A stretch of DNA of 64,000 nt, taken from the IMG/VR virus record IMGVR_UViG_3300032225_001145, positions 60,972 to 124,971 of that record; one strand, 5' to 3'. Below the pieces are notes generated by a model. It was not told the origin of the DNA, did not search any database, and was given only the letters and a program-made list of their open reading frames with translations. The stretch comes from a virus (Duplodnaviria > Caudoviricetes). Positions 7,748-61,384 of this stretch are shown piece after piece. The translations under genes were made by a program, and so were the position numbers. Numbering within the stretch: the first letter of the stretch is position 1; each line of letters begins with the position of its first letter.

Positions 7748-7765
7748 ACCCAACCCAATTTTACC

Positions 7766-8085: not shown

Positions 8086-8086
8086 C

Positions 8087-9128: not shown

Positions 9129-9129
9129 G

Positions 9130-9158
9130 TTGTAAAAAACCTAAAGTTGTGCTACAAT
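9130..9158 (+). promoter_or_regulatory. sigma70-type promoter
   Basis: TTGTAA-17-TACAAT, ATG at 9165. Confidence 0.6.
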
Positions 9159-9164
9159 ATCAGT

Positions 9165-11540: not shown

Positions 11541-12129
11541 CATCATCAAAATATATATCATTGTTTATAAGTCTAAGCGTTAATATTTTCCGACTATTAT
11601 CTAGGCTTTTATTATAAAAAGTATGATAGATATCTACATTTATAAGTACTGCTTCGTTAGGCTGTGCGACTAAAGTTTTTACTTGAGGATATTCTGCAGC
11701 GTTGCGCCAATCTCTTAAAATATTTCTTGTAGTAATACCAGTAATATGCTCAGTACTATTACTACTAACAGGCCAATCTTTAAACTGTTCATCATTGTAC
11801 CAACCAGTTATACATTTATCATCTAATATCTGTAAAGGAATGTTAATACTTACTCGGTTGTCGTAGCCATCTTTATGTATACCGGCTCCGCCGTCGGGCC
11901 ATGTATTAAATATCCAAAATCTATTCAATTTTAAAGGAGTAATATCTTTAAATGGCAATTTTTCATTAATTGATATTGCTGTGTCTCGAGAAAGATATTC
12001 GGTTTGATACCCGGCGGCTTTTACTATGTTCGCTAAAGGTTGCTTAGATACAAAGTCAATTATATCTGATAGTCCGTCCCATTTAAATCTTATATAATAA
12101 GGACTACAGTCTTCTATAATGGTATACAT
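11515..12129 (-). CDS. cupin/2OG-Fe(II) oxygenase-like protein; paralog of 1025-1624
   Basis: IHKDG...YH...LTLR; identical N-terminus MYTIIEDCSPYYIRF. Confidence 0.65.
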   Translation of the reverse strand: MYTIIEDCSPYYIRFKWDGLSDIIDFVSKQPLANIVKAAGYQTEYLSRDTAISINEKLPFKDITPLKLNRFWIFNTWPDGGAGIHKDGYDNRVSINIPLQILDDKCITGWYNDEQFKDWPVSSNSTEHITGITTRNILRDWRNAAEYPQVKTLVAQPNEAVLINVDIYHTFYNKSLDNSRKILTLRLINNDIYFDDVKKLIFDL

Positions 12130-12144
12130 TTTATTAAATATTCT

Positions 12145-12756
12145 TTATTCTAATATTGCGTCAAAAATACAAACTATTCTGTCAACTGCTGTTTCATTTG
12201 TTATACTGTGTGGCACATGGTTATTAATCCAGTATAATTTACCCAATTCCAACTCAATGACTTCTTCTCTTACTATGAGCGAAGAACTTTTATCACAACT
12301 TATTATATATTGAAAACGATCATGTATTTCATAATAATTTCCTGAATCAATATGAGATTTTACACTTCCGCCCGCAAACAATCTACTTATCATAATTCTA
12401 CCTAATAATATATTAGAGACTCCTTTTTCTATTAATGACCTTGTAAACCAGTCTACTAGTTCTTGGAAGATGGGATGCAAGTCGTACTCAGACATATTTG
12501 TAGCTGGCAGGAAATCGTTCCATTCTTTGTCAGTAACCGGCTTCGGTAGACCAGCGTTTAAATCAATATATCTTAAAAAAATTGCTTCGGTATCGCGCAA
12601 ATATTTGTTTGTACGTTGTCTGCCAGTTCTTAATTTCCACCATTTTTCATTTTCAGAATTGTTTAACACATCTGTTAATCTTTTAGCAAGGTCTTGATTC
12701 TCGTTAATAAACAGGTAATTACTTTCCACTGGTGCTAATTTAAAAGGTGAAAACAT
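12145..12756 (-). CDS. aspartyl/asparaginyl beta-hydroxylase-like 2OG-Fe(II) dioxygenase
   Basis: RIMISRLFAGGSVKSHID...WINNHVPHSITN...DRIVCIFD; AGGAG RBS. Confidence 0.8.
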   Translation of the reverse strand: MFSPFKLAPVESNYLFINENQDLAKRLTDVLNNSENEKWWKLRTGRQRTNKYLRDTEAIFLRYIDLNAGLPKPVTDKEWNDFLPATNMSEYDLHPIFQELVDWFTRSLIEKGVSNILLGRIMISRLFAGGSVKSHIDSGNYYEIHDRFQYIISCDKSSSLIVREEVIELELGKLYWINNHVPHSITNETAVDRIVCIFDAILE

Positions 12757-34100: not shown

Positions 34101-37100
34101 CGATTTAATACTTACATTTTTAGTATTGATATAAATTTGTTGACCAAATGCAAACTGACCAGGATTATTAATACTCTTATTGCTACTTGGGAAATAATCA
34201 TAGGTATACGCTACTCCTCCATTAATAATTGGATTGTAAAAGGTTGTACTGTGTTCGTCAAAATATGTTTGACCGGCATCGAATGTTGTTGGTTCGTATA
34301 CATTTCCATTAGGAGATCCAACAATTAAGTTAACAGCTGAAGTATCTATACTTAAACTAGCACCAAACTGTCCATTAAATACTGGCGCAGGACTTAATAT
34401 TTGTTGAGTGAGTACAAAAGTATTAAATCCTAATTGATTGAATACTGACGATACTGTGCCAGGTAATACCGTGATATAATTATAAGGGATACCACCATTT
34501 ATATTTTTAACTGATATAGTTAAACGACCCGAAATAATTGTTATCTTTCTACCAGCTAACGGAGCATACAAGAAATAAATATTTTGTGTAGCGTTGTCGT
34601 AGGTATAATCTGTGCCAGCAGTTTGTTTTATATTATCTATATAAACTACAGTAGTATAAGAACTAGCAGAAGAATATAAATCTCCTATATAGAATATTTT
34701 TGTACTACCATCACCTAAAAATTCTAAATTAGATGTTGTAGATGCTAGCACATTTGGAATATTAGCAGCATTTATTGCAGCCGCAAAACCTTCTATTGTG
34801 TTATTAGCGCCAGAAGGTACAGTTACTTGAGTATCATTTATTCTTAAGGTGCCGCCAGCGGTTAATGTTGGGTTAGCTATAGTAGAAGTTGTAATTCCAT
34901 ACACTCTAGACTGATTTACTTGGTGATCAACTGAGCCAGCAAGGTCAAGTCTGGTACTATCAAACGGGGCGCCGAGATATAAACTACAATTTAACGGGCA
35001 GGAGTCAATAGCAAATCCATACTGAGCATTTTCATTAGGCGTACTGCTATATAATTGTTGTATTTGTGTTATCTGGTTGGTACCAATTTCAATTATATCG
35101 CCATAATTGAATGTTATATTAGAAAATACAACATTATTGCCATTGACTGTATATTGACCGTTTGTAGATTGCGAAGTAGTTAGTAAGTAGACCCCATTTA
35201 CACTTACTGTAGCAGGTGCTGTTATACTACCTGCTACAGTATATGTTGTTTGTGATGGATTGGATACTATAAAACGAAGTACACTTCTGTCAAATACATA
35301 AGCCTTACCAGCACTAATATTTGAATTAGGCGCACCAACTGTTATTTGTCTACCATCTGTGCTAGTGGCTATACTAGCTCCAAATCTATCACCTAACAAA
35401 GATTGTGCTGAAGTGATTTTTTCTACATACTGCCAATAAGTTGGAGTAGATACATAAATTTCTGCTCCTTCTGGCGGAATAGTAATAAATGTTAGAGCAG
35501 TAGTTTGAGAATCGAATGTATAATCTAAATAAGGTCTTTGTATAACTTTGTTTACACTAACAACAAAATTATTGATGGTAGTAGCATTGTACAAGTATTG
35601 ATTTAACACAAAGTTATTAGCATTTATAATGCCAGTACCAACATAAGAGAATCCAACTATTGTTCCTAGTATATTTACACCAGTAACAGTTATAGTTAAA
35701 TTGTTAGTTGGGTTGGTACCACCTAATTGTGTTCCGTTTATAGTAAGAACATCACCAATAGAGTAGTTTTGACCACCAAATTCTAATGTAGGATAGTAAA
35801 CTCCTCTAGTATCTTGTACTGTGAATAAAGCCCCGGTGCCAACTCCTACTACTGAGTTTTGATATCTGTGATAGTATATTTTTTCATCTAATTGTTGTAA
35901 TTCATTCCTTCTTATTGTTAAATACTGACCATTGTTAGGTGGTGTATTATTAAGGAATGTTATACTAGAAGCATCTATTGTATAATCTATGCCGTAAGTT
36001 AACAAAGTATCTTTTGTAAACTCAGTACTTCCGCCTAGATACACTTTTAATTGTGCTGGATGTGCATAATCAATTTGTAAAGCATTATTGTATCTATAGG
36101 ACAAAATGTCGTTGGCTGTAATATACTGGATAGATTGATCTTCTATTTGTACCTTTTGGTAGGCATATACACAGTTGGCGCCGGGTGCCCCGATGTACAT
36201 CCAATTTTCATCGGTACTAATAACTCCTGCGGTACCAAATTCTATGGCACTAAAATTCTGATCGGGCGGGACTAATAATTGTGATATAGCCGCTGTATCA
36301 GTACCCGAGACTCTGTAAATTACCGCAGCATATCCTGTACCCGACATACTAGTATTTGCGCCGGCCACTGCCCAATTAGATGCTCCAAAAGCTAACATAT
36401 TACCAAAATTACTTGTTTCTAAGGCATCTAATCTTATATCAGTACTAAATTGATAGTCGCTTAATATATCTTTATAATATCCTGCTACACGACCAGCGCC
36501 GTTACCACCGCCAGGTGACCCAACTAATGCAAACAAATTATTTTGAGCTTGAGCTATGCTATAAGCAAATTGATTGTTTGCTGTTGGCCCAACAAGTGTT
36601 GAGCTCGTGACAAACGGACTTTGTTTTTGTACTGCTTCCCAATGGCCGTCGCCATCATCATCAACCCAAGCTATTGCGCCAGGTACTAAACTATTAACAT
36701 AAGGTAATTTTGAAATATCACTTGCTTGAGTTACTCGAGCACTTTGTAAATGTAGCACAAGTCCTGTGCCCGAAACTGTAGTTACATTAGTTTTTGTAAA
36801 ACTATATGCTATAGTGACTGTAGTGGGAGTTGGTATTGTTAATACTCGATAAACTCCATTGATCGCATTATTAAAATATTTTATAATAATCAAATCACCA
36901 ATTGACAAATTATGAGTGTTATTAAATTGAGCTACGCTGGTTCCGTTTAAATTATCACTGAGTTGTGTCATAGTAGCGCCAACTGCCGCTGTTCTGTAAA
37001 CTCCCCAATCATAAGGATTAATTTTAGCAATCCAAATATAAGTGCCAATACCTATTATGTTTATGTTAGCATCAATCGAAGATGGATCCTCGAGACTGAA

Positions 37101-40100
37101 TACTGTTACATCTATATCGTCCAAACATACATAACCTGCTGATGGCAATGCCGTTGGAGTATTACTACCTTCGTAGATAGTTGGCAAAATATCAGTAGAA
37201 GTTATATTATAACTTTCTTTCCACAAATTAGATAGATAAATTTGTTGATTAGCTTGACTAGTTTCGCCTGGATTAATTATTTGTATTGTAGATGGATTAT
37301 AAGGCAGTAGAGCTTGATTTAACTGAATGTCAAAGTTACTCTTATTAGCTTGAGCGCCATAAGTGCCCGATAATATCCCCCAGTTTTCATAAACATTATA
37401 TGCTCCGCTTTCGTTGCGATTCAACTGAGCAGTATTGAATATCTCTGCGGCTTGTAATGATCCCTTAGTTCCTATAAATTGCTGATAAAGTTGTACTTGT
37501 GTTACATCATTAAGATTTAGATCAGTCATATACTGGCGAGGACGGAATCCAATCAATCCAAACGCAAATAAATCGTTGTCAGATGTTAAATTAGCTTGAT
37601 ACACATTATAGGTAGTAACTAACTGATCAGCTTTATTGGCCAAGTTAGGTAACAATCCGTTATCAATAAGTTGATAATTGCTTTTTACCCATTCGACATA
37701 ATTGAAAGTTTCTTGAGGTTCACTTATAGTCAATGCTTGCCAATAAGTGTTTTTGTACAATACAATTTCACCTTTGGTGTATTTGGTATAAGGTTTCCAT
37801 TGCTCAACATTGTTAAGATTTAATATAAAACCTTGAGCATTCAGTTGGCCATCCCATTGCGTTGTAGTAGAAGCAATAAGACTTAATCTAGATTGTCTTG
37901 CGGCTGTCGCTGGATCATAAATTAAATCATTAAACTGACTTGTGTTGTTTAACACAATCATATCTTCATAATTTGTAAATTTTAAAGTCAAATAATTAAT
38001 TGTTTGACTATTAGTTGTAGTAATAGAAAATAAATTGCCATCACGATAAACAACTAGATTTCTAACGTCTAATACTTCTGCGTTCTGATCTAATAACATA
38101 TTTTCTGGTGTAATACTAGCAACAGTATCTACTATACTAATAGGTTGACTGGCAGTAATTTTAGTAGCACAAGGATTTAGATTGATGATTGTGTTTGGCT
38201 CCCATCCTTGGGCGGCAAAATTTAAAAATTCTTGGCACATTTGCGACCAATTTAAAGTATGTCCATTAAAAATATTGTCAAATACTATTCCCTGACTGGA
38301 TAACCATGCTCCATAGCTTAATAAAAAATCGCATACACTAGCAGGAGTAGTAAACACATAGCCATAAGGTATTTGTTTAATGTTATTAGTATATTGAGAC
38401 GGTACTTGTACAGATAAATTTCCAGCTGTAAGTGTAGAATAAAGCCCTACTGGATTACTTTGTAATATTTCAAAATAAGGCTGGGCACTACTATATCCTT
38501 GAACTGAATATCCAATACCTCCACTGCCTAATTGTTCTACTTGTACAATTACAGAACTATATGTAATTTGATTAAACGGCTGATTTTTATAAAATAATAA
38601 ATCGTAACTAGATGGCGGAACTAACAAACTATTATTAGTAGAATTGGGTCCAGCCCGCTCAGTGAATAATTGTACATACACTGGATCAGAGAACGATGCC
38701 ATACGATAACATAAACGTACATCTAAATTTGCTAGATCTATAGTTAAATCTGTTGTACTGTTAACTCCAAATTGTTGATTATAATCTACAATCCAGTTAA
38801 TATAGGATGCTTTGCTTACACCATTTCCGTAAACTTGTACGCCAGTAGCGTCTAAACGATAGCGATCGTTTAACAAATATTGCCCTAATTCTGTGTTATA
38901 ACGGTATAAATCTCTATCAGCATATAAAGAGAAAAACTGTGCTGGCTTAGTTAAAGCCAACATACGCATAATCGCAAAAGGATAAGAGCTACTATTCCAC
39001 CACGATGCTTGAACTGGTCCACCATCACCGGCCACCCAAGATTGTTGGAACCCGTAAGGATTATTCCGGCCCATAACACTTAAATTAGGAGGCAATAATT
39101 CTCCTGAAGTGCCTGCTGGAATGATTTTACGCAATCCTGGACGAACATACTCAGGAAGAATATATGGTCCAGCTGGATTGCCTACAATACCTGCTTCTAA
39201 ATCATCCCACAATACTGTGTTGCCTGATGTATAAGGAGCCGGACCATAACGCAATACCCACCAGTCTGGTTCTTCAGAAAATCCAACCATTTCCCAAGGA
39301 GTCGAATTAGGAGTTTCTGTATCATAGAAATAACGATAAATGCCGCGCCAGTTACCTTGTAAAAATGGTTGTTGATCTACTCTGTCGGCAGCTTGACTAT
39401 AATTCCAAGTAAAAGGATTATTTGCCACATAATTTTGTGTGGTATAATCAATTTTGTTTTGTCCTACCCAGGTTAAGAAATCTTCGCTCATTATCTGATT
39501 AATTTCTTGATAGGTATACGGAGTATCGCGGAAGAATCCTGGCAACAATCCTGTTGTTTGATCGGGGTAAAAATCTGGATCTACTTCATCAGTAGCCAAA
39601 GGAATTGGATTGTCGTCCAGTTTAATATTATTGTAAATACGTTTTTCAAATTCTAACAGTACTTGATCGCGGATATCACCAAACGCAATAGTTATGCTAC
39701 CATCATGACCTTGTATTACTACAGTTGGTTCAGAATATGTATCGTCAACAAATATACTTGGTGTATATTTAGGATACAAACCCATTTTACTTGGTGTGTT
39801 TGGACACCAATTAGGATAAGTTACTGGGTATTCATCAATAGTAACAACATCGCCCACACTTAACGGAACATGTATTGTTAATTTAAGGGCATCTGTAGAA
39901 ACAGTATACTGACTACCACGAAGTAATAATACCTTGTTAACATAAACTAATAATCCAAGATAATTTGACGATGTAAAATTATACATCTCATTAGTATTAA
40001 ACACATTAGTAGTAATAGGATTGACTGTTATTGTGTTCGTAGTATAGTTAGTTCCGGCTGGTAACATATCTGACCAATAAAAAGGATCAGAACTAGTTAA

Positions 40101-43100
40101 ACTTGTAGTAATATTTCTTATAGCTAAATCTAATATTTGAGAAACTGTTTCAGTTCCGTTTAAATTTAACTGTGTTACCGCTGTTAACAATTTATTTTTG
40201 TATTTGGTATACTCGCGATTATTATATTCCAAGGCAGCAAAAATATTATAATTTGCTGAGCGTAAAAAATATCCTGCTAGTGTTAATGGTGACGATTGTT
40301 GTAGTATTAACTGTCCGTAAGGAATAATATTTCCTAAATCTCGAGTATTATTTCTACCGTTAATTGGTCCTTGCAGCGCAGTTAAATTTTCACAAATTGT
40401 ATTATAATGATTGCGAACTGTACCTAAACTAAACTGAGACGAATTTTCATTAAAAGGATTATTTTCAAGATTAATGGGTATTTCATAAAACCCTTGATCA
40501 CTTACTTGTTGACTATAAACTAATACTTCAATTACATCTCCAGTAACATACCCCGACCCATTAAGTGTAATAGTTGATGTGTTTGTTGTAGTATTAACAG
40601 AAAGTGTATATGTTGATGGTTCTTGATAAAGGCTATTAATAAATACCTGTGCTGGTGGCACATCTAAATTTGTTTCAATTGCAATATCAAATTGTAAAGG
40701 TGTTCCTGCATAGCTAAATTGAAATTGCTGCCGAGCTAAAGACGGTATAGTCGCTGTTTGCCACCCAATCTCGCGAGTGAAAGTAACTCTATCTGAATAT
40801 TGTCGTACAAATCCCGAACTAACATCTATTGTTGAACCAGTACCGCCTGCTGGAGTATATATAAATGAATCGGTATATAAATTATTATCAAACAGTATAT
40901 CACCGATATTATTAATACTAAAAAATGCTAATGGAATACCCAATACTTCGTCGATTGGATTGTCAGCATTTTCAGCATAACTTAATAATTTACAACCAGC
41001 AAAGTTACTACTTGGATATTGTGTAGGATCAGAAAAACTAACCCCACTACTATTATATACATCAAACAACGGAGCTTGATTAACGGCTGTTTTTTGTTGT
41101 GTACTAAGCCATTCAGACCCAGTATAATAAAAACTTTTACCTGTTTGAGTATTACCGCTGGTACATACTGTGACTTGATTAACTAAAACTGGATTTGTAC
41201 TAATTGGCACCAAATCAATTATAGGCACTAACGAAACTTCTGGGTCTACAACTATAAAATTAACTTGATAAATTTGATTTCTTACTTCAAGATTATTATC
41301 GGCAGCAAAAATAACTAAACTATCCTGTACTAAAGTATATCCATCAATACCATACCCCAATTGTCCTGCTACATTTAATAATGCGTCAGTTTGAGTGGTA
41401 TCAATAACATTAACAGGAGTAATTCCTTGAGTGCCAAAATTAAATAATTTAGTTCCGGCACGGAATTCTAAAATAGGACGATTGGCTCTTTGAGCATTTG
41501 TATAGGACGGCTGTATGTCATTATATGCCGCGGCCGCATCAATTACATCTACATGAAACCAACGGTTGCTACGGCTCCACGGATTAAGGTCAGGACTTGC
41601 CATGTTTATAGTCAAATAATCAGGCTCTACTGGTTGTATAATAATTTCTGTACTATATAAAGAGTCTGAATGATTTGTTGCATCCAGTAATGTTATGCTT
41701 GATCCTACCCCTTGGACATAATAGGTATTTCCAACATAACTGCTTGGTGTAACATCTCCTTGAAATGTAACTTTTAATCCGTTCGTGAAAACTACACCAG
41801 CTGGGGTGGTATATTCTGATTGACCTAATATTTGAGTATTAACATTAATAGTAGTCGAAGGCGTGGTAGTTGATGGCGCAACTATAATAATTTGTGACAA
41901 ATATATGCCGCCTGGTCTCCCTACTCCCTCAACATAATAGATATTATTGGAATAGCTATCTGGATAAACGGTTCCGTTAAATTTAATTTTTAAATTATTA
42001 GTAAATTTGATACCATTGGAACTAGTATATGATTGTTGTCCTAATATATCGGTATTAACATTGAGTATCCCTAAACTACTTGTTGGCACTAAAAAAATAC
42101 TTGATCCCACACCTTGAACATAATAGCTATTACCAATATAACTAGTTGGATAAACATTACCTTGAAATACCACTTTTAATCCATTGGTAAAAGTGACCCC
42201 GTTAGGACTAACATAATTTTTTTGTCCTACTATTTCAGTATCAACATTTATATAAGCATTAACATTGATTGAATTTATTGTGCCGCCGCCAATATATGCA
42301 GCTGTTTCAGTACTATTAAAAGTTACCGAAGATGTTGTACAAGAAGTTACAAAATAAGTTCCATTGTATCCTGCTGGGTTGACCTGGCTGACAATGATTG
42401 AACTTCCAATTGAATATGGGGCGGTTAATTGTGTTGTAAAATTTAATGTTACACTAGATCCAGTGGCATTAATTCCTATGACTGCCAAGGGAGAAGTTGT
42501 TGAATTTACATTTTCAGTAATAAATTTAATTTGGCCAAATATTGTAGGATCTTCGCTATCTTGATAATAAACCGCAGGCAGCGAAGCAGTTAATAAAGGT
42601 ATTTGCTCGTATGATCCAAAAGAATTTTTATACCATTGTGTATTAACATATTCTGTTCCGTAAGTTATACTAAATTGCGTATTATTTGTTATGGTTAGAA
42701 TACTGTTTAATTGTATCACTCCAGAAACATATTGAATTTGCCATAAACTTGCTAAAACTGTAGGATCTGTATCGTCAGTAAACACCAAAGTACGCGAATT
42801 AAGATTTGTTATACCGTCTATACCTGTAGGATTTTCTGATAAAAATGTATCAACTAATACACCATCAAGTTGACTGTATGTAAAAGTTGAACAAATTAAA
42901 TCAACTGTTCCTGTGCCTGTAGATGGATAGTTAATGTACGGTAAAGTTTGATAAAAACTTTGTGCTGTTAAAGTTGGAACATTAAATGTAACAGTTCCTA
43001 AATCAGTTCCGTTGTTTGATACTCCAAACACATCTCTATCACTAATGTTAGGTGACCAAGGCAATCTACCGTCGATGCCTGGTTGCGTTTGAATCCAAAA

Positions 43101-44018
43101 TTGAGGACCCGAACCACTAGTAGCATCTATAATGTTTAATTGTCCTCTTAGATTGTAAAGTACATCATTACAATAATAAAGAACATCAGGCGCATCTTGC
43201 GGAACTGTAAATGTAACTAATCCAGAATATGCTCCGTTATTAGTAACACCTTCGCTAAACAAATTAGCTGTGCCAAATGATGCTTCGGTTTTAATGTAAA
43301 ATTTATAAGGTCCCGTTTGTACTAAATTCCAAGTATAAGTGTTTCCACGAACTAAAGTTAATGTCGGATTAGCTGTTTGATCAATAGCCCAACTACTTGT
43401 TCCGTTGTTAATAACACGATAATCAACCGCGTTAGCTGTATTTTGTGCTACTACAAAGTTATAATTTCCTTCGCGGACTAATGTTAATGTTGGATTAGTT
43501 CCTTCATATCCACTAAAAGTATAAGCACCATTAGTACGAGTAACTGTAAAAGTTTGTTCTGTTGGAACAGATGTAGGTGCTACTGTAACTAAATCTGGCC
43601 CGTTAGGCAACCAATAGTATTGAGAATAATTACTATACTTGTCAAAATCTACAAATGGGTCCCAAGAATAATATTCGCTTTCAAATAATCTATCTTGTTG
43701 ATTTACGATTCCACCTTGTGTTGATAACGCATCAAGTATTCCAGGATAAGTTATAGCATCATCAATTTTACCAGTAACAGGATTTAAAGATATAACTCCA
43801 GGTTCTAATTGATAATTATTGCGAATTTTAGTTGGTTCAATAACATAACTGTCATTGGCGTTTACACCTGGACCAACTCTTTGACCAATAAAACCTTGTG
43901 TTTGTTTGTATTGTGGTTCTTGAATTAACTGATCGAGGGTAGCGTTCAGGAATTGTGTGTTTACTGGAGTTTGGAATATCTCTGGTAGAAAATCTACCGA
44001 ACGAATCTGTGCGGCCAT
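28185..44018 (-). CDS. giant 5277-aa baseplate/tail-associated structural protein
   Basis: Single uninterrupted ORF directly after the gp6-like gene; FG-GAP-like propeller repeats and internal repeated modules. Confidence 0.85.
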   Translation of the reverse strand: MAAQIRSVDFLPEIFQTPVNTQFLNATLDQLIQEPQYKQTQGFIGQRVGPGVNANDSYVIEPTKIRNNYQLEPGVISLNPVTGKIDDAITYPGILDALSTQGGIVNQQDRLFESEYYSWDPFVDFDKYSNYSQYYWLPNGPDLVTVAPTSVPTEQTFTVTRTNGAYTFSGYEGTNPTLTLVREGNYNFVVAQNTANAVDYRVINNGTSSWAIDQTANPTLTLVRGNTYTWNLVQTGPYKFYIKTEASFGTANLFSEGVTNNGAYSGLVTFTVPQDAPDVLYYCNDVLYNLRGQLNIIDATSGSGPQFWIQTQPGIDGRLPWSPNISDRDVFGVSNNGTDLGTVTFNVPTLTAQSFYQTLPYINYPSTGTGTVDLICSTFTYSQLDGVLVDTFLSENPTGIDGITNLNSRTLVFTDDTDPTVLASLWQIQYVSGVIQLNSILTITNNTQFSITYGTEYVNTQWYKNSFGSYEQIPLLTASLPAVYYQDSEDPTIFGQIKFITENVNSTTSPLAVIGINATGSSVTLNFTTQLTAPYSIGSSIIVSQVNPAGYNGTYFVTSCTTSSVTFNSTETAAYIGGGTINSINVNAYINVDTEIVGQKNYVSPNGVTFTNGLKVVFQGNVYPTSYIGNSYYVQGVGSSIFLVPTSSLGILNVNTDILGQQSYTSSNGIKFTNNLKIKFNGTVYPDSYSNNIYYVEGVGRPGGIYLSQIIIVAPSTTTPSTTINVNTQILGQSEYTTPAGVVFTNGLKVTFQGDVTPSSYVGNTYYVQGVGSSITLLDATNHSDSLYSTEIIIQPVEPDYLTINMASPDLNPWSRSNRWFHVDVIDAAAAYNDIQPSYTNAQRANRPILEFRAGTKLFNFGTQGITPVNVIDTTQTDALLNVAGQLGYGIDGYTLVQDSLVIFAADNNLEVRNQIYQVNFIVVDPEVSLVPIIDLVPISTNPVLVNQVTVCTSGNTQTGKSFYYTGSEWLSTQQKTAVNQAPLFDVYNSSGVSFSDPTQYPSSNFAGCKLLSYAENADNPIDEVLGIPLAFFSINNIGDILFDNNLYTDSFIYTPAGGTGSTIDVSSGFVRQYSDRVTFTREIGWQTATIPSLARQQFQFSYAGTPLQFDIAIETNLDVPPAQVFINSLYQEPSTYTLSVNTTTNTSTITLNGSGYVTGDVIEVLVYSQQVSDQGFYEIPINLENNPFNENSSQFSLGTVRNHYNTICENLTALQGPINGRNNTRDLGNIIPYGQLILQQSSPLTLAGYFLRSANYNIFAALEYNNREYTKYKNKLLTAVTQLNLNGTETVSQILDLAIRNITTSLTSSDPFYWSDMLPAGTNYTTNTITVNPITTNVFNTNEMYNFTSSNYLGLLVYVNKVLLLRGSQYTVSTDALKLTIHVPLSVGDVVTIDEYPVTYPNWCPNTPSKMGLYPKYTPSIFVDDTYSEPTVVIQGHDGSITIAFGDIRDQVLLEFEKRIYNNIKLDDNPIPLATDEVDPDFYPDQTTGLLPGFFRDTPYTYQEINQIMSEDFLTWVGQNKIDYTTQNYVANNPFTWNYSQAADRVDQQPFLQGNWRGIYRYFYDTETPNSTPWEMVGFSEEPDWWVLRYGPAPYTSGNTVLWDDLEAGIVGNPAGPYILPEYVRPGLRKIIPAGTSGELLPPNLSVMGRNNPYGFQQSWVAGDGGPVQASWWNSSSYPFAIMRMLALTKPAQFFSLYADRDLYRYNTELGQYLLNDRYRLDATGVQVYGNGVSKASYINWIVDYNQQFGVNSTTDLTIDLANLDVRLCYRMASFSDPVYVQLFTERAGPNSTNNSLLVPPSSYDLLFYKNQPFNQITYSSVIVQVEQLGSGGIGYSVQGYSSAQPYFEILQSNPVGLYSTLTAGNLSVQVPSQYTNNIKQIPYGYVFTTPASVCDFLLSYGAWLSSQGIVFDNIFNGHTLNWSQMCQEFLNFAAQGWEPNTIINLNPCATKITASQPISIVDTVASITPENMLLDQNAEVLDVRNLVVYRDGNLFSITTTNSQTINYLTLKFTNYEDMIVLNNTSQFNDLIYDPATAARQSRLSLIASTTTQWDGQLNAQGFILNLNNVEQWKPYTKYTKGEIVLYKNTYWQALTISEPQETFNYVEWVKSNYQLIDNGLLPNLANKADQLVTTYNVYQANLTSDNDLFAFGLIGFRPRQYMTDLNLNDVTQVQLYQQFIGTKGSLQAAEIFNTAQLNRNESGAYNVYENWGILSGTYGAQANKSNFDIQLNQALLPYNPSTIQIINPGETSQANQQIYLSNLWKESYNITSTDILPTIYEGSNTPTALPSAGYVCLDDIDVTVFSLEDPSSIDANINIIGIGTYIWIAKINPYDWGVYRTAAVGATMTQLSDNLNGTSVAQFNNTHNLSIGDLIIIKYFNNAINGVYRVLTIPTPTTVTIAYSFTKTNVTTVSGTGLVLHLQSARVTQASDISKLPYVNSLVPGAIAWVDDDGDGHWEAVQKQSPFVTSSTLVGPTANNQFAYSIAQAQNNLFALVGSPGGGNGAGRVAGYYKDILSDYQFSTDIRLDALETSNFGNMLAFGASNWAVAGANTSMSGTGYAAVIYRVSGTDTAAISQLLVPPDQNFSAIEFGTAGVISTDENWMYIGAPGANCVYAYQKVQIEDQSIQYITANDILSYRYNNALQIDYAHPAQLKVYLGGSTEFTKDTLLTYGIDYTIDASSITFLNNTPPNNGQYLTIRRNELQQLDEKIYYHRYQNSVVGVGTGALFTVQDTRGVYYPTLEFGGQNYSIGDVLTINGTQLGGTNPTNNLTITVTGVNILGTIVGFSYVGTGIINANNFVLNQYLYNATTINNFVVSVNKVIQRPYLDYTFDSQTTALTFITIPPEGAEIYVSTPTYWQYVEKITSAQSLLGDRFGASIATSTDGRQITVGAPNSNISAGKAYVFDRSVLRFIVSNPSQTTYTVAGSITAPATVSVNGVYLLTTSQSTNGQYTVNGNNVVFSNITFNYGDIIEIGTNQITQIQQLYSSTPNENAQYGFAIDSCPLNCSLYLGAPFDSTRLDLAGSVDHQVNQSRVYGITTSTIANPTLTAGGTLRINDTQVTVPSGANNTIEGFAAAINAANIPNVLASTTSNLEFLGDGSTKIFYIGDLYSSASSYTTVVYIDNIKQTAGTDYTYDNATQNIYFLYAPLAGRKITIISGRLTISVKNINGGIPYNYITVLPGTVSSVFNQLGFNTFVLTQQILSPAPVFNGQFGASLSIDTSAVNLIVGSPNGNVYEPTTFDAGQTYFDEHSTTFYNPIINGGVAYTYDYFPSSNKSINNPGQFAFGQQIYINTKNVSIKSGDRFGTSVSYVTGKLMVGATGGTVNNTTSAGYAAVFQNPDNTPSWKPIRTQQPVVDVYGINGVFSYNGEQSAGVNTTITGQYQTYFDFFDPLQGKILGIARSNIDYIGAVDPAQYNQGSVHNNGQTWSKEHIGQMWWDTDTVRFIDPNQDDIVYASRRWGQTFPGSKVDIYQWVESANPPSNYTGTGTPLSTTSYVISSQLGQNNIFTTLYYFWVKGITTVATGSGKTLSPTAVSSYILDPRSSGLPYIAGLNASTIAIYNAQNLLNASNTILSIGFDREITDAVIHQEYQIITDGIDSSFLNTNLYRKFLDSMCGLDTVGNPVPDPLLSPGMKYGVQFRPRQSMFDDRFTALENYLGRANTVLAQYPISETRSFNLLNSSEPIPTSDVTVTAGNFVIGTTYTILTVGTTNFTTIGASSNTAGVSFVATGSGSGTGSATTIVWNTKVANLEILGYQNLASIPVGYKYLVLSDSSQNGRWTIYEITAPQTLDLHQVQSYDTPEYWYYVNWYLPGYNSSIAPVAAVQNYGQLSTLSLETAPVGSSVRVVSNGAGKFEIYKRSGPDPYIGWTRVGLEDGTIAFKEDLWNYTVGNFGFDAQVFDSQYFDETPQVETRYILRALNEEIYVEDLEYERNSSLILIFNYVYSQFIDPSWLIKTSYVDVNHKIRSLLPYQSYLSGDQNFVLKYFQEVKPYHVQVRQFNLIYTGEDDFLGDITDYDLPAYWDSTLSDPQFVSPILTPYTEAITTSHSSASNTAPNAQIWQYPSLYSQWYQNYLLSVDAVTIPIGGAGYTSTPVVTVTGTCVEQASMTAIINTSGQVIGITINNPGSGYTTDAVITISGGGLPEEPTLWSAGLTVVSNESIITSENTIYKVTTAGTLGNAEPITRIINAGNFIIGSTYTIQFVGTTDFTAIGADSNQSGIVFIATGTGSGTGTAITNTVTVTNGTVILQFVGQIARAVSIMGNPSVRSLNLTLKYDRYEYQSDIVDWTPTEFIIIDLTNVVASNGIATATFEYEQTSIPFSDGNSISINGVSVSALNGTYSVSSCSTINLTYPTTYTGAGYNGQLNGTVLVKYINGTQVRHNNVVYAANGTDGYVQNSVFDPAEWTIVNPGILSGVNRTQGYYVSTVNNPGLNLPLLIDGIDYPGVQVSAVTFNQDTGFDRGNFDINVYDNISLDANGQPTYDLGILNTIFRSFYGTLETGPIPTGTAVSDINIDGGKYVDVYESHAPEELVPGIEFDTLDFRVYTTPGADWQGLGHGFPQVTLQVIYDNSNPTISFAGLQPYPVAIEITDTTQGYDLSQGYDYTIDWVNQTITISNSSLLVADGDRLAIYVYELGGGNQLYKNVYNGAEVGNSLVIPVQYELIQEIAVFVNGTTTTAFTFIDNASVTFGTTLINFDNTYNSTDFISLVAIGPTTINDVTTNYSWSVPTTQYLMAVTGQYDDYELDPTINLEYTNPLVAMVTIGGVTAIGSAGVPYVGDGNTNGYAFPERTGIDYTTISDSNVKVYVDGILQINPTDYTLGVYTGFSGDSLGDNYSIAPYDLDINTKFVLFDTPPAAGTEIYIAVDELAQYTIDPVARTLSFIPGTGIVPDNGQVISVTTFNDTREQRLSTQIFVGPVTITEGIVIEEGFDTTLYSSAVQNDDPGSYSYQEGITISENDFVLYQSYTDAARAWVFLKHVDSNCRVLSPYIDYTIEGNILTLNSGVIGTGDILMVINVTSSVVPEAMEFRIFQDMRGMQATYRMTSATTTTVAQAVSATDDIIHVVNASALSIPDFAANVWGVVTIDGERIMYRDIDLTDNTISSLLRGTAGTGADSHAVGAYVYDMGRGNLLPAQYQDYIESESFLGDGSTKVFTSTLVVNNANEWVASTPYDSTLYSTDGINGEYDPGAASNSRAVEVYLGGTLQTSGYTLSNLDPVVVIFVTAPDAGTEVSIFVRKGTSWYNPGVDTASDGVPLQITNNPMALFLRGGI
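41687..42251 (-). repeat. three tandem ~55-aa repeats within the giant protein
   Basis: INVDTEIVGQ..Y....G..FTNGLKV.F.G.V.P.SY....YYV.GVG..I.L three times. Confidence 0.85.
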
Positions 44019-56646: not shown

Positions 56647-57663
56647 ATGACAAATCTATTCCGTAAGGTAGCAGTTTGTACTGACCTCCACTGGGGCTTA
56701 AAATCCAATAGTCTAGTACATAATCGTGATTGTGAAGCATTTATTGATTGGTTTATTGCCAAAGCTAAGGAGGAAGGTTGTGAAACCGGAATGTTCCTCG
56801 GCGATTGGCATAATCATCGTGCTAGTATCAATTTACAAACATTACAATTTAGTGTTCAAGCATTAGAAAAACTATCAAAAGCGTTTGATAAGTTTTACTT
56901 TATCCCCGGCAATCATGATTTATACTATCGCGATAAACGGGACATCCACGGTGCTGAATGGGCTAAACATATTCCAAATATTATCATTGTCAATGATTGG
57001 TTCAAGGAAGGCGACGTTGTTATTGCTCCTTGGCTAGTGGGTGATGATCATAAAAAATTACACAAAATGTCAGCCAAATATATGTTTGGACATTTTGAAC
57101 TTCCACATTTTAAAATGAATGCCATGGTAGAAATGCCAGATCATGGAGAAATTAGCGTAGATAGTTTTGGCGGGGTTGAAAGCGTATATTCTGGACATTT
57201 TCATTTACGCCAGCAAAAGAAAAATATCACATACATTGGAAATTGTTTTCCACATAACTTTGCCGATGCTGGTGATGACCAACGAGGTATGATGGTTAAA
57301 GAATGGGGCAAAGAAGATCAGTATTTTGCTTGGCCTGGACAACCATTATATCGTGTTATGAAGCTAAGTGATGCTATCGATAACGGTGCTAGTATATTTG
57401 TGCCTAATATGCATGTTCGTGTAGAGTTAGACATTGATATTAGCTATGAAGAAGCTAACTTTATCAAAGAAACATTTATTAAAGATTATAATCTGCGTGA
57501 AATGGCTTTAATACCTAGCAAGAAAACTGATATTAATACCGACTTAGCTCCAGGAGATGTTAAGTTTGAATCCGTGGATCAAATTGTAACAGATCAGCTT
57601 ACTAATATAGCATCAGAGTTTTATGACAATAAGTTATTACTAAAAATTTACCAAAATCTATGA
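56647..57663 (+). CDS. gp47: recombination endonuclease subunit (Mre11/SbcD, T4 gp47-like)
   Basis: DLH, GDW, GNHD, GHFH phosphoesterase motifs. Confidence 0.93.
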   Translation: MTNLFRKVAVCTDLHWGLKSNSLVHNRDCEAFIDWFIAKAKEEGCETGMFLGDWHNHRASINLQTLQFSVQALEKLSKAFDKFYFIPGNHDLYYRDKRDIHGAEWAKHIPNIIIVNDWFKEGDVVIAPWLVGDDHKKLHKMSAKYMFGHFELPHFKMNAMVEMPDHGEISVDSFGGVESVYSGHFHLRQQKKNITYIGNCFPHNFADAGDDQRGMMVKEWGKEDQYFAWPGQPLYRVMKLSDAIDNGASIFVPNMHVRVELDIDISYEEANFIKETFIKDYNLREMALIPSKKTDINTDLAPGDVKFESVDQIVTDQLTNIASEFYDNKLLLKIYQNL

Positions 57664-59423
57664 TACAAATAAAGAATCTATCAGTTAAAAACTTCATGAG
57701 TGTAGGTAATGCTACACAAGGTATCAACTTTGATCGCCAAGACTTAACATTAGTTCTAGGTGAAAACATGGATTTAGGTGGAGATGGATCACGCAATGGT
57801 ACTGGTAAGACTACTATTATCAATGCGTTAAGCTATGCTATGTATGGTACTGCTTTAAGCAATATTCGCAAAGACAATTTAGTTAATAAAACCAACGGTA
57901 AGAACATGATTGTTTCGTTAGACTTTACAGTTGGCAACGTAGATTACAAAATTGAGCGTGGGCGCAAGCCTAACTTGCTAAAGTTTTATGTCAATAATAA
58001 AGAAACTGAAGCCGACGACAATGCTCAGGGTGATAGTCGCGAAACACAAGATGCTATCGAAAACATTTTAGGTATGAGTCACGATATGTTCAAACATATT
58101 ATGGCATTAAACACTTATACTGAACCGTTTTTATCGTTGAAAGCTAATGATCAGCGTACTATTATTGAACAGTTGCTTGGCATTACCATGCTATCTGAAC
58201 GAGCTGAAAAAATTAAAGAATTAAATCGTACTACTAAGGAAGACATTACTAAAGAAGAATTTAGAATTCGTGCTGTTCAAGATGCTAACAAGCGTATAGA
58301 AGAACAAATCGAAGCACTAAAGCGCAGACAAGGATTATGGGTAACTAAACATGACAATGATATCAAAGAACTTGAGAAGGCATTATCGTCGCTCCAGGAA
58401 ATTAATATTGAACAGGAAATTCAGGCGCACAAGGACCACAAAGCATGGGATCAACGGCGCAAGGATATCAACGATTTATCTGGTCAGATCAGCCGCACGA
58501 AACTGGATGTTTCACGGGAAGATAAAACGATTTCCAAAGTATCTAAAGAAATTGAAACGCTCAAAACCCATCAATGTCACACGTGCGGTCAACCCTTTCA
58601 CGACACAAAGCACGAATCAGTACTGGCAAGTAAGCAGGAAGATTTGGATGGAGCTCGAGCAAGCCTCACAGAACATACACAACTCTTATCAGAATTGGAG
58701 ACTGCCTTCGAAGCCTTGGGCGTGTTAGGAAAACCTCCTAAGATGTTTTACGATAAAGAAGAAGATGCTATCCAACATCGTACTACTATCGAAGGACTTG
58801 TAACACAAATAGCCAGTAAACGAGCAGAAGTTGATCCATATGATGAACAAATTGATGATATGACTAATCAAGCATTAGAAGAAGTATCATATGATGTGTT
58901 AAACGATTTAACAAAATTACAAGAACATCAAGAATTTTTACTTAAATTATTAACAAGTAAAGATAGTTTTATTCGTAAAAAAATTATTGAACAAAATTTA
59001 TCATACTTAAACGCTCGGTTGACACACTATTTGGATCGTATTGGCTTGCCACATACCGTCGTATTCCAAAATGACTTAACTGTTAGCATTGAAGAACTGG
59101 GTCGAGACTTAGATTTTGATAATTTAAGTCGTGGTGAACGCAATAGACTTATATTAAGTATGGCTTGGGCATTCCGTGATGTATTTGAATCGCTTTATAC
59201 ACCAATTAATGTGTTGTTTATTGACGAAATGATTGATAACGGGTTAGATACACAAGGTGTAGAGTCAGCACTAGCATTATTAAAACAAATGTCGCGTGAA
59301 CGACATAAGAGTATTTGGTTAGTTAGTCATAGAGACGAGCTAGCAGGGCGTGTAGAAAACATTCTTAAAGTAGTTAAAGAAGCAGGATTTACCAGTTATA
59401 ACACAGATATAGAGACAGCATAA
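57660..59423 (+). CDS. gp46: recombination ATPase (Rad50/SbcC, T4 gp46-like)
   Basis: Walker A GSRNGTGKT, CHTC zinc hook in coiled coil, LSRGE signature, FIDE Walker B, SH switch. Confidence 0.93.
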   Translation: MIQIKNLSVKNFMSVGNATQGINFDRQDLTLVLGENMDLGGDGSRNGTGKTTIINALSYAMYGTALSNIRKDNLVNKTNGKNMIVSLDFTVGNVDYKIERGRKPNLLKFYVNNKETEADDNAQGDSRETQDAIENILGMSHDMFKHIMALNTYTEPFLSLKANDQRTIIEQLLGITMLSERAEKIKELNRTTKEDITKEEFRIRAVQDANKRIEEQIEALKRRQGLWVTKHDNDIKELEKALSSLQEINIEQEIQAHKDHKAWDQRRKDINDLSGQISRTKLDVSREDKTISKVSKEIETLKTHQCHTCGQPFHDTKHESVLASKQEDLDGARASLTEHTQLLSELETAFEALGVLGKPPKMFYDKEEDAIQHRTTIEGLVTQIASKRAEVDPYDEQIDDMTNQALEEVSYDVLNDLTKLQEHQEFLLKLLTSKDSFIRKKIIEQNLSYLNARLTHYLDRIGLPHTVVFQNDLTVSIEELGRDLDFDNLSRGERNRLILSMAWAFRDVFESLYTPINVLFIDEMIDNGLDTQGVESALALLKQMSRERHKSIWLVSHRDELAGRVENILKVVKEAGFTSYNTDIETA

Positions 59424-59466
59424 TGAAATTTTCAAGTACCACAATATCGGCGATAACTATTAGTCC

Positions 59467-59895
59467 ATGTCTTGGCTTTATGAAAATCAAACTATTGAAG
59501 CATTACCAGAAGATTGTATTGGATTCGTTTATCTAATCACAAATACACTCTCTGGCCGGAAATATGTAGGAAAAAAATTAGCAAAATTTAGTAAAACATC
59601 ATATCGAGTAGTAAAACTTAAAAACGGTAAGAAGAAACGCAAAAAAATTAAAAGTAAAATAGATTCAGACTGGCAGCAATATTACGGCAGTAACATAGAG
59701 TTGAACAAAGACATCGAACAACTAGGCAGCGAAAATTTTACAAGAGAAATACTATACTACTGTAGGTCCAAGGCTGAATGTAGTTATGTAGAAGCTCGAG
59801 AACAATTTAATAGAAAAGTACTGGAAACTAACGACTATTATAATGGACATATACAAGTTCGTGTACATGGTAGTCATATAATCAACAAAATTTAA
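59467..59895 (+). CDS. stand-alone GIY-YIG family nuclease-like protein
   Basis: GFVYLITN...KYVGKK, YYGS, F.REIL, E and YYN catalytic positions; basic insertion; no C-terminal DNA-binding domain. Confidence 0.85.
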   Translation: MSWLYENQTIEALPEDCIGFVYLITNTLSGRKYVGKKLAKFSKTSYRVVKLKNGKKKRKKIKSKIDSDWQQYYGSNIELNKDIEQLGSENFTREILYYCRSKAECSYVEAREQFNRKVLETNDYYNGHIQVRVHGSHIINKI

Positions 59896-59899
59896 TCAT

Positions 59900-60318
59900 C
59901 ATTGTAAGGCATCATTAAGACAATGTTTGGTCGAGGTAGCTCGACTCGCAAGGAGGAACGGTGAGATACCCGGTCTGGATGGGCTTGTGTGTCACAGGAT
60001 AGTTGCTAACTTAAGGCATCAAATGGTTTGGGCTCCGTTGAAACAGATACGACCCATGCTTATAGGACTTGGATTTATTATCGGGTTACTAGGGTTCCGT
60101 TGATATGTGAAGCTAGAGTAAGGGGTACCGGTCAACCGCCTCTGCGTCGTAAGACAATCTCTTTATAATAAATGACTGTGCAACTCAGATGAAGTTTGTA
60201 CCAATCATGTTCGCCGTGTATACGGTGAATTGTGACCGATTAATCTAGATGAAGTATCTAAAAACAAAAATATAAGACGAGCTGTTAAGCGAGTCTTAGA
60301 TTAGCGTAGCTAATCTTT
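59900..60318 (+). ncRNA. putative large structured non-coding RNA, family not recognised
   Basis: ~420 nt with no ORF of 60 aa or more, GC above background, about ten hairpins and a long-range helix 60073-60081/60165-60173. Boundaries are approximate. Confidence 0.65.
60298..60318. terminator. hairpin between convergent transcripts, possible terminator
   Basis: AGATTAGC-GTA-GCTAATCT perfect 8-bp stem; only a short T run. Confidence 0.5.
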
Positions 60319-60323
60319 CAATT

Positions 60324-60536
60324 CTAGAAGAAAGGTAAGCCAGACTTCTTAGTTGTTTCTAAATTAGCCGTAACGATTTCGTTGATTATTGTTCTTTCAT
60401 CAAAACTAAGATGCATAGCATCATTGTAACTGATGCCACCGCGCATGTACCAAGAAAGTGTTAGCGCCTCTCTCCTTATTGCGTTTGACTCTTTGCCTAA
60501 TTCATCAATCCACTTGGCAATTTCGTCAGCGGTCAA
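60324..60536 (-). CDS. gp51-like/tail-assembly-chaperone C-terminal segment, probably reached by -1 frameshift
   Basis: TTG start with poor RBS; in the -1 frame of the upstream gene directly after T TTT TTC. Confidence 0.75.
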   Translation of the reverse strand: MTADEIAKWIDELGKESNAIRREALTLSWYMRGGISYNDAMHLSFDERTIINEIVTANLETTKKSGLPFF

Positions 60537-60538
60537 AC

Positions 60539-61384
60539 TTAAGAGGCGTCCCCGAAAAAATCAGTCATATTCAGTGTGAGTGTCTGCTGATACTGATGTT
60601 TACATTCAGAACATTCTAGATCTAATGGTTTCATTTCAGCACTGGATTTAGCTTCTATAATGAAATCTCTAATTTTACCGAACAAAGTTCTTTCACAGTT
60701 ATTTAAAAGCTCTAGGATATATTCAGATTCAGTAACTTGAGCTTGCGGAGTTTTAATAACAGCAATACTTTGAGCCAGGGCTTTAATTGTGATTTCAGTT
60801 ATTTTTTTGATAATTTCTGAATATTTTGTAGCTCTATACTTTTCTATATCATCCCCTTCTTCGGGTAACTGACTTAAAATTCTTTGTTCGTCATATTGTG
60901 ATTTATTATTGTCAGTAAGATTTTTGTAAGTCATTGGTTTAAGATAGATTTCCATATCGCCGTGTCGAATAGGCGTAGAATAATCTGGACTTTTCATACC
61001 ATCCAGCATTACTCGTAAATCAACTAGTCTTTGGTCTTCGTGCGTACATTTTGGGCAAATTGAAGTAAATGGCATTTCGTGGCCATAACTAGCTATTCTT
61101 ATAGCTATTAAAATACTATCTACATCAGTAGCTGGCATGTACCAAGCATTTTTGATACTAGGTAAACAGCTCTGGACTACATTAACAACAGCATCGCCAT
61201 TAAACAAGGCATCAGGTGTGCGATAAGTGATTTCGTCTATAGCAGTCATCGGAAACACTGGAAATTCCTTATTAGGCGTCATTTCCAAGGTTCCGGGCGG
61301 ATAATATTGCCCTTGACTGGGTAAACGGATGTAAATTGACGGTTGTCTAAAAAATTGTTTTAACGGATTGGTAGTTGCATTCAT
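60539..61384 (-). CDS. baseplate hub assembly protein (T4 gp26-like)
   Basis: LPSQG..Y, PMTAIDE, D.D.ILIAIRIASYG, two CxxC pairs, ends DFF. Confidence 0.8.
   Translation of the reverse strand: MNATTNPLKQFFRQPSIYIRLPSQGQYYPPGTLEMTPNKEFPVFPMTAIDEITYRTPDALFNGDAVVNVVQSCLPSIKNAWYMPATDVDSILIAIRIASYGHEMPFTSICPKCTHEDQRLVDLRVMLDGMKSPDYSTPIRHGDMEIYLKPMTYKNLTDNNKSQYDEQRILSQLPEEGDDIEKYRATKYSEIIKKITEITIKALAQSIAVIKTPQAQVTESEYILELLNNCERTLFGKIRDFIIEAKSSAEMKPLDLECSECKHQYQQTLTLNMTDFFGDAS
60554..60560 (-). other. slippery heptamer T TTT TTC (putative programmed -1 frameshift)
   Basis: GAT TTT TTC GGG GAC GCC TCT TAA; the -1 frame reads CGG GGA CGC CTC TTA AGT TTG ACC GCT into the next ORF. Confidence 0.7.

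Follow-up and report, generated by a model that had tools for sequence, protein, structure and literature searches.

A gap of 428 nt (59896-60323) in the DNA of a T4-like phage of the giant type (with gp46/gp47 and gp26-like genes) encodes, as judged by sequence comparison, a structured non-coding RNA of approximately 400 nt on the + strand (approximately 59907-60319). The gap lies between the open reading frame (ORF) of a 142-residue GIY-YIG protein and a convergent 70-residue ORF in what we call the window, the whole stretch of 64,000 nucleotides that was analysed, which is the final 64 kb of a 124,971-base IMG/VR record (IMGVR_UViG_3300032225_001145; CheckV completeness 36%). The predicted RNA is an Rfam-invisible variant of the known, uncharacterised Polynucleobacter-1 family (RF01718) and not a wholly new class. 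On balance, we lean towards reading the gap as a stand-alone gene for a stable RNA of approximately 400 nt, with the GIY-YIG nuclease as a homing-type neighbour that would be linked to it at the DNA level and would not be a subunit of an RNA-protein particle.

Comparative evidence for a + strand RNA

The gap had been singled out in an original prediction, made from the letters of the window, as free of ORFs and richer in GC than its surroundings, and both features are confirmed. The GC content is 0.47 at 59900-60099 versus approximately 0.31-0.39 in the flanks, and the largest ORFs within the gap are 58, 46, and 38 residues long, none of them conserved. Insertions and deletions of 1-2 nt are common among homologs of the gap and break the frames of these ORFs; their frequency excludes coding. 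A protein search of IMG/VR with the GIY-YIG protein yielded 80 loci with 72-96% identity over 142 residues, and in 38 of the 80 loci first fetched, nucleotide identity across the gap is 77-95% (approximately 80%). Since synonymous substitutions in the GIY-YIG gene have reached saturation between most pairs, an identity of approximately 80% in the gap means strong constraint. An invariant 26-mer of the RNA retrieves at least 119 loci.

We aligned 82 non-redundant copies of the RNA and derived, via mutual information, RNAalifold, and inspection, a structure of 92 base pairs with two pseudoknots. In this structure 89.2% of the alignment cells are paired, compared to 79.9% in shuffles, and compensatory (double-sided) changes occur in 57 of the 92 pairs (684 cells). 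The covariation score is 0.265 versus 0.110 in shuffles, with none of 500 shuffles scoring as high, and falls to 0.03-0.10 when the partners are slid by 1-3 columns, so that the covariation proposed earlier as a check on homologous downstream regions is indeed present. The minimum free energy z-scores of -0.19 (+ strand) and -1.44 (- strand) are not significant versus shuffles, so energy alone is uninformative and the evidence for structure is comparative. As for the strand, every copy has a GNRA loop (GTAA, GAAA, or GCAA) in the hairpin at 60146-55, a loop that exists on the + strand only, and many of the pairs are G.U, which would be A.C on the opposite strand. Because these features occur on the + strand only, the RNA is assigned to that strand, in line with the original argument from G-U pairs and GNRA-like loops.

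Stems had also been picked by eye, and six out of eight find support in compensatory changes. Those at 59930-45, 60029-56, 60073-81/60165-73, 60121-43, 60146-55, and 60210-29 are borne out in this way, as is the tandem-GA hairpin (60273-98). The stem CTTGTG/CACAGG (59984-98) has to be given up, with its bases pairing with 59947-50 and 59919-21 instead, and so does the hairpin at 60089-116, where 60159-62 is the partner of 60115-18, and 60132-38 that of 60098-104 in a pseudoknot. Both pseudoknots were absent from that list. From 5' to 3', the predicted RNA consists of the following parts:

59907..59993, + strand: 5' domain, with a conserved TAAGGCA box (59907-13) and a closing helix (59919-21/59991-93)
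59929-46 and 59947-50/59986-89, + strand: helices of the 5' domain, namely a hypervariable hairpin and a helix enclosing the hairpin 59955-76
60003..60059, + strand: two hairpins, 60003-19 with the invariant loop TAACTTAAG, and 60026-59 (60029-32/60053-56 plus 60036-37/60050-51)
60063..60173, + strand: double-pseudoknot core (helices 8-15), with the longest invariant blocks of the RNA
60066-71/60082-87, + strand: stem A of pseudoknot 1, whose loop 60073-81 pairs with 60165-73 (stem B)
60098-104 with loop 60132-38, + strand: pseudoknot 2
60115-18/60159-62, 60121-26/60138-43, and 60146-55, + strand: further core helices, the last being the GNRA hairpin
60171..60255, + strand: double-loop module, consisting of a YGAC box and loop R1 (60183-95), a hairpin (60210-29), and a second YGAC box and loop R2 (60243-55)
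60274..60319, + strand: terminal hairpins, 60274-97 with a conserved tandem G.A motif inside it (GAGC...GCGA(A)), and 60299-317, after which comes a T run

Helices 1, 3, and 4 of the 5' domain are paired in 88-99.6% of cells and show compensatory changes, and the TAAGGCA box remains with the RNA where an insert splits the RNA from the GIY-YIG gene. The pair 60029/60056 is U-A in 45 sequences, G-C in 27, and C-G in 6. The central four base pairs of pseudoknot 2 are particularly informative, occurring in ten pair-preserving versions across all RNA types described below (TTGA/TCAA, TTGT/ACAA, TCAT/ATGA, TCAG/CTGA, and TTAG/CTAA are among the tetrads). The hairpin 60210-29 (helix 16) covaries as well, and the terminal hairpins (helices 17-18) have double changes at all 8 pairs. 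A T-rich run is also found 3' of the terminal hairpins on the - strand, where they are predicted, probably, to end the gp26-like operon as well. One further pairing proposed by RNAalifold, between an R0 segment (59973-79) and R2, was rejected, as it is mismatched in 19 of the 82 sequences with an association no better than chance.

Polynucleobacter-1 and the twin loops

Rfam scans of the whole window at the gathering threshold, and of 59300-60700 at E up to 10, gave three distant tRNAs and chance-level matches only; the RF01718 threshold of 37 bits is not reached by the window RNA, and this model has no match even at E up to 10. A blastn search of the locus versus 50,697 GenBank phages gave no match. 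The relationship becomes visible in sister loci. A hidden Markov model of the window-type RNA matches nearly every GIY-YIG locus, but in approximately 30 of them the match is confined to approximately model positions 190-331 (nhmmer, E 1e-5 to 1e-15). Six of these loci were scanned with Rfam, and in them the stretch just 5' of the shared part, which comes right after the stop codon of the GIY-YIG gene, is RF01718, with 75-118 bits; over all such homologs scanned, the scores are 63-118 bits. The GIY-YIG gene of the window is 72-84% identical to the genes 5' of the RF01718 matches.

We therefore distinguish RNAs with the 5' domain of the window (type 1), with the RF01718 5' domain (type 2), and with a third, unnamed 5' domain (type 3). 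Type-2 RNAs continue as in the window, with an equivalent of stem B (TTAGCGT/ACGCTAA instead), the CCG-NNNN pseudoknot, the GAGGTACCGG-N-CAACCGCCTC block, R1, hairpin and R2, the GAGC...GCGAA hairpin, and the terminator. Type 3 (L007:3427-3900, L069, and L078) has a GC-rich 5' domain that begins GGTTGGCGGGCCAG and has no Rfam match, followed by the same twin-loop 3' module. In types 2 and 3, other hairpins take the place of the hairpin 60210-29. A match to a known Rfam family had been named beforehand as an argument against novelty. The window copy has no such match; its family does, via the type-2 sisters. Of the alternative that had been offered, an independent new phage RNA class, the first half is the better reading, while the class is not new, since the 3' half is common to the RF01718 RNAs.

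Polynucleobacter-1 was described by Weinberg et al. 2010 (Genome Biol 11:R31; PMC2864571) from 16 sequences, with the 3' half sometimes undetected. According to the account of the motif in that article, most copies lie 3' of genes of the GOS11034 family, possibly homologous to PSSM2_218 of cyanophage P-SSM2, and no copy occurs in any sequenced purified phage. Given the authors' text and the P-SSM2 homolog of our protein, GOS11034 is most likely the present GIY-YIG family. Since the account of the motif already holds this link, the association of gene and RNA is a rediscovery. New here are the recognition of the gene as that of a nuclease, the full size of the RNA, its 5'-domain modularity, the two pseudoknots, and the phage origin (contigs up to 347 kb). 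RF01718, present in Rfam since 2010 as a 141-nt motif with 16 members, would thus be a single exchangeable 5' domain of a much larger RNA with two pseudoknots (400-520 nt). This RNA is abundant in giant T4-like phages from freshwater, where hundreds of contigs carry it, and has at least 2 further 5' domains missed by Rfam. This makes the RNA family a concrete target for work on structure and function.

The most unusual part of the RNA is the pair of loops R1 (60183-95, ACTCAGATGAAGT) and R2 (60243-55, ATCTAGATGAAGT), which share one variable core, AGATGAA in the window. The cores of R1 and R2 are the same in every genome bar two exceptions among more than 130 distinct sequences, and this holds over at least 13 versions (AGATGAT, AGATAAT, GGATAAT, GGATGAT, AGATGAA, AGACGAA, ACATGAA, AGATCAA, GGATGAG, GCATAAT, and AGGTAAT among them). 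Position 60187 changes together with 60247 (A/A in 45 sequences, G/G in 36) and 60191 with 60251, and the boxes before R1 and R2 also change in concert (CGAC, TGTC, TGGA). The relation between the loops is one of identity, not complementarity. Complements of the core were not found within 4-5 kb on each side or across the 125-kb contig, nor were extra forward copies within 5 kb. Covariation between loop letters and GIY-YIG residues is at background (at most 0.44 of approximately 1 bit). Coding of the R1-R2 unit in a rolling circle or concatemer was considered and rejected, as the loops are spaced by 47-60 nt without codon (3-nt) periodicity and most units lack an open frame. With pairing, coding, and protein co-evolution all failing to explain why R1 equals R2, either a partner that reads both loops identically or copying between the loops is needed. 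Strict identity of two loops over at least 13 versions is a rare evolutionary signature, which should constrain the mechanism.

The GIY-YIG gene and its linkage to the RNA

The features that surround the RNA gene in the window are:

56647-59423: gp47 and gp46 (Mre11/Rad50-type)
59452..59466, + strand: conserved box of 14-15 nt, ATAAcTAnTAGTcc, immediately 5' of the GIY-YIG ATG; candidate element
59467..59895, + strand: stand-alone GIY-YIG nuclease gene of 142 residues, a SegE-like catalytic domain with a basic beta-hairpin insertion (residues 40-66)
60324-60536, - strand: convergent 70-residue ORF
60539-61384, - strand: gp26-like baseplate hub

Judged from its sequence, the 142-residue protein is a complete and selectively maintained SegE-like GIY-YIG nuclease with putative activity. 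Residues 3-129 match positions 1-123 of the 123 positions of Pfam PF19835 (SegE_GIY-YIG) with 110.2 bits versus a cut-off of 25, and the 148-position profile phrog_447 is matched with E 2.5e-36. The length is 142 residues in every close homolog and approximately 145 residues in cyanophages. With both models covered as a whole and the length constant among homologs, 142 residues is the normal architecture of the family and not a truncation, so that the protein is not anomalous in being minimal, as had been supposed. The ratio of nonsynonymous to synonymous substitutions (dN/dS) is approximately 0.09, with a median dS of approximately 2 where computable and saturation in most pairs. Among 24 sequences, the motif residues G19, V21, Y22, Y33, G35, R93, and N126 are invariant and E94 nearly so (these residues were mapped onto I-TevI positions by inspection only). 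The low dN/dS at saturated dS and the invariant motif residues are our reasons for considering the nuclease functional.

In the AlphaFold 2 model (predicted local distance difference test, pLDDT, 78), the lysine-rich insertion forms a beta-hairpin, and neither this model nor Pfam indicates a separate DNA-binding domain beyond the catalytic domain and the basic hairpin. In a Foldseek search of the PDB, the best match is the I-TevI catalytic domain (1LN0), with a probability of 0.99 and a target-normalised TM-score of 0.61, but an E of 0.05 and a high root-mean-square deviation that reflects the inserted hairpin. A sequence search of the PDB with the protein gave no match, T4 endonuclease II included. 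The C-terminal tail YNGHIQVRVHGSHIINKI (residues 127-142; 59845-59892) is near-invariant yet disordered in the AlphaFold model (pLDDT 32-36); it could contribute to a metal site, along with the invariant residues C17, C99, H134, and H137, or else become folded on a partner. The label "NAD synthetase", carried by phrog_447 and by many cyanophage and Erwinia phage records of this family, looks like a propagated mis-annotation. A scan of bacterial genomes with the protein found only 4 short contigs of metagenome-assembled genomes (L210-L213; 1.3-3.3 kb, copies 67-79% identical), binned as Saccharibacteria, Bacteroidetes, and Gammaproteobacteria; these are probably phage fragments mis-binned as bacterial.

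The linkage of RNA and GIY-YIG gene across relatives, also part of the original prediction, is well supported. RNA loci that were found independently of the protein have the GIY-YIG gene upstream on the same strand in approximately 90% of cases with enough upstream DNA, and the two are tightly adjacent on the same strand in approximately 80% of loci, across three RNA types. The 107 loci of the Polynucleobacter-1 (PN-1) type comprise 86 with an adjacent GIY-YIG gene, 9 with an insert, and 12 without the gene. Ten of these 12 had no match to any of six query proteins, and the RNA was confirmed by Rfam scan in L265 and L287 only; the remaining eight are therefore probably chance matches to the degenerate search pattern. 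Inserts of 0.6-2 kb with unrelated ORFs separate gene and RNA at approximately 16 loci in one set and at 9 of the 95 GIY-YIG-bearing PN-1-type loci; the six inserted ORFs tested have no Pfam family.

Protein and RNA do not obligately occur together. A PD-(D/E)XK phage endonuclease (PF24608, 168-188 residues) replaces the GIY-YIG gene in two type-1 loci (L146, L160) and two type-2 loci (L226, L251), directly 5' of the RNA in three of these loci and with a 261-residue ORF in between in L160. In L287 (IMGVR_UViG_3300042383_000907, 1-12681), the complete RNA (9381-9527 plus the 3' module) lies within at least 20 tRNA genes and a permuted transfer-messenger RNA (tmRNA; 10790-11187) on the same strand, outside the gp46/gp26 synteny, and in L265 it is flanked by genes for a DUF454 protein and a metallophosphatase; neither copy has a recognised nuclease beside it. 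Conversely, 499 GenBank phage (INPHARED) records match the GIY-YIG protein, all with less than 60% identity, and the RNA was not found beside the GIY-YIG homologs of the 3 cultured phages examined. In P-SSM2 the next ORF abuts the gene, and in Melnitz-3 and BUCT608 the homolog is followed by a short gap without a match to the RNA.

As to the wider locus, the 14-nt box before the ATG is kept in at least half of 55 distinct upstream regions (consensus), and where genes have been inserted after gp46, homology to the window begins at 59451, so that the box forms the 5' edge of the block of GIY-YIG gene and RNA. The spacers on either side of this block (59424-59466 between gp46 and the GIY-YIG gene; 60320-60323 between the RNA and the 70-residue ORF) are minimal in the window and are insertion hot spots; in relatives (L088-L206) they hold 0 to approximately 4 kb of extra DNA with radical SAM proteins and many ORFs without Pfam matches. 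The 70-residue ORF is found directly 3' of the gp26-like gene, a few nt apart, in all related loci (40-69% identity). The window also contains a single ORF of 5277 residues (28185-44018, - strand) followed by one of 1143 residues, in a structural gene region. A second copy of the locus was not found in the 125-kb contig.

Competing explanations and known systems

The case for a stand-alone RNA gene with a homing-type neighbour starts from the autonomy of the RNA: its full architecture is kept in the absence of the GIY-YIG gene and is found after two unrelated nucleases. This autonomy disfavours a specific ribonucleoprotein or a guide role. Homing-type nucleases adjoin or sit inside tRNA and rRNA genes, and segB lies within the tRNA cluster of T4. 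By this account, the RNA would be modular, with common 3' two-thirds (core, twin loops, tandem-GA hairpin, terminator) and a 5' domain of type 1, 2, or 3. Small free-standing nuclease genes, mostly GIY-YIG and PD-(D/E)XK in some, would settle next to this extremely conserved gene, and the pair would then be co-inherited through a link at the DNA level. The RNA would act in trans and offer its two identical loops to a partner that is dimeric or duplicated. Should the nuclease be no more than a homing-type neighbour, the locus is still a clear-cut natural case in which nucleases track a conserved phage RNA gene.

Several observations weigh against this account. The GIY-YIG gene is intact, present in approximately 90% of loci, and at least as conserved as gp46, whereas homing genes are usually sporadic and often decayed; moreover, its protein lacks the separate DNA-binding domain of the characterised Seg and I-TevI enzymes. 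With sporadic presence and a separate DNA-binding module both lacking, the alternation of GIY-YIG and PD-(D/E)XK is the sole trait typical of homing endonuclease genes. The adjacency of gene and RNA on the same strand, 20-50 nt past the stop codon and across three RNA types with dissimilar 5' domains, might exceed the expectation for neutral synteny. The nuclease is exchanged for another nuclease and for no other kind of gene, and so some nuclease could be functionally needed beside the RNA. Finally, the ends of the RNA and its independent transcription are predicted.

According to the original prediction, protein and RNA form a ribonucleoprotein, possibly RNA-guided, in which the RNA would serve as scaffold or guide and lend specificity to a GIY-YIG protein poor in domains, with the twin loops as programmable element. 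We regard this as unlikely. It would account for the tight same-strand adjacency at approximately 80% of loci and with three RNA types, for a protein made up of just a catalytic domain and a basic hairpin, for loop cores that differ between genomes like a specificity code, and for the other small nuclease that often occupies exactly the same spot where the GIY-YIG gene is missing. However, GIY-YIG and PD-(D/E)XK enzymes have unrelated folds and precede the same RNA types, which makes a shared interface with the RNA improbable; L287 and L265 have the RNA with no recognised nuclease beside it, and the protein family thrives in cyanophages without the RNA. A guide of 15-20 nt, variable and single-stranded, is also lacking. 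Sequence variation falls in paired hairpin stems, an A-rich linker, and the loop cores of just 7-8 nt, and a complementary or identical target is absent within 5 kb on each side and from the 125-kb contig. Protein residues do not covary with the loop letters, and an RNA-guided GIY-YIG enzyme was not found in the literature searched. If we still reserve a small share of belief for a functional nuclease-RNA pair, this is because the GIY-YIG gene is near-universal, under purifying selection, without a DNA-binding domain, and swapped for another nuclease. A bolder and decidedly unlikely version holds that the RNA and a small nuclease of either fold form a functional pair in which the fast-changing twin loops are a short programmable specificity code. 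If a functional pair exists, the loops might mark self versus competitor genomes in mixed infections or steer the nuclease to a duplicated or palindromic target, and the locus would represent either a phage "barcode" RNA or a nuclease system of a new kind, specified by RNA.

Other explanations concern the RNA or its 3' module alone. The upstream nuclease, or another enzyme, might cut at the twin loops and free the hairpin piece of 47-60 nt as a small RNA, in loose analogy to the repeat-directed processing of CRISPR or ToxI RNAs. Two direct repeats of approximately 24 nt (YGAC box plus loop) in concerted evolution with a hairpin between them suit such a scheme, in which a single site-specific RNase would need identical sites; but the freed piece is constant within a type and exchanged completely from type to type, the known activity of GIY-YIG enzymes is that of a DNase, and recognition by a protein does not require identical variable positions, so that we consider processing improbable. 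We place slightly below it a cis-acting 3' element of the nuclease mRNA that would stabilise, silence, or time a potentially toxic nuclease, or act as an RNA antitoxin. The RNA does begin 20-50 nt past the stop codon on the same strand, the sole promoter-like match in the scanned region is on the - strand inside the GIY-YIG ORF, and phage nuclease genes are often tightly regulated. Yet approximately 400-520 nt with two pseudoknots far exceeds known 3' stabilisers, and the RNA is kept after two unrelated nucleases, despite 0.6-2 kb of other genes between nuclease and RNA, and with no recognised nuclease nearby (L287, L265). Least probable of all is that the 3' module acts as DNA, with the concerted repeats as iteron-like protein sites of an origin, packaging, or recombination function beside an RNA gene. 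Concerted direct repeats are typical of iterons and recombination core sites, and the repeats are identical without being complementary. But both repeat cores lie within hairpin loops whose stems covary, the middle hairpin keeps its pairing via a G.U that is possible on the + transcript only (60213/60226), the module is flanked by elements typical of RNA (pseudoknot core, tandem-GA hairpin, terminator), and close relatives often differ in letters, too fast for a binding protein to follow. Known classes were also considered. A group I intron was rejected, given the lack of an Rfam match, a complete gp46 upstream (residues 1-587 align in relatives), and a convergent next gene. RNase P, tmRNA, C/D-box, CsrA-sponge, and anticodon- or codon-mimic RNAs fail, by inspection, on architecture or motif variants and have no Rfam support.

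Among known systems, IscB/TnpB with their omega-RNA (HEARO) resemble the locus in that a nuclease gene is joined, on the same strand, by a large structured RNA next to it, an association conserved over many loci. By contrast, the nuclease of the window has another fold, the RNA has no guide at its end, transposon context is lacking, protein and RNA of this type are each found alone, and an unrelated nuclease can stand in for the GIY-YIG enzyme. GOLLD and ROOL, which are often located in tRNA arrays, are likewise large structured phage RNAs of unknown function, and one copy of the present RNA (L287) lies inside a tRNA array; the window RNA differs in being smaller, with no Rfam match to them and no evidence of multimers. 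The SegA-G enzymes of T4-like phages are closer on the protein side. The protein of the window matches the SegE-type GIY-YIG domain, the phage is T4-like, and the gene lies between conserved genes and by a very conserved RNA gene, flanked by spacers that are insertion hot spots. Seg enzymes have approximately 200-220 residues, whereas the window protein has 142 and lacks a C-terminal DNA-binding domain, and its gene, far from sporadic, occurs almost throughout the clade and is subject to strong purifying selection.

The nearest relative is Polynucleobacter-1 itself. The window RNA has a 5' domain of another architecture (helices 59919-60059), and RF01718 covers 141 nt of RNAs that are approximately 400-520 nt long in full; the 2010 account of the motif does not identify the neighbour as GIY-YIG or describe pseudoknots or twin loops. 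On the other hand, in sister phage contigs the locus, strand, and upstream gene family are the same, both RNAs are of freshwater origin and unknown function, and the RF01718-bearing RNAs share the whole 3' module of the window RNA, including pseudoknot core, twin loops, tandem-GA hairpin, and terminator.

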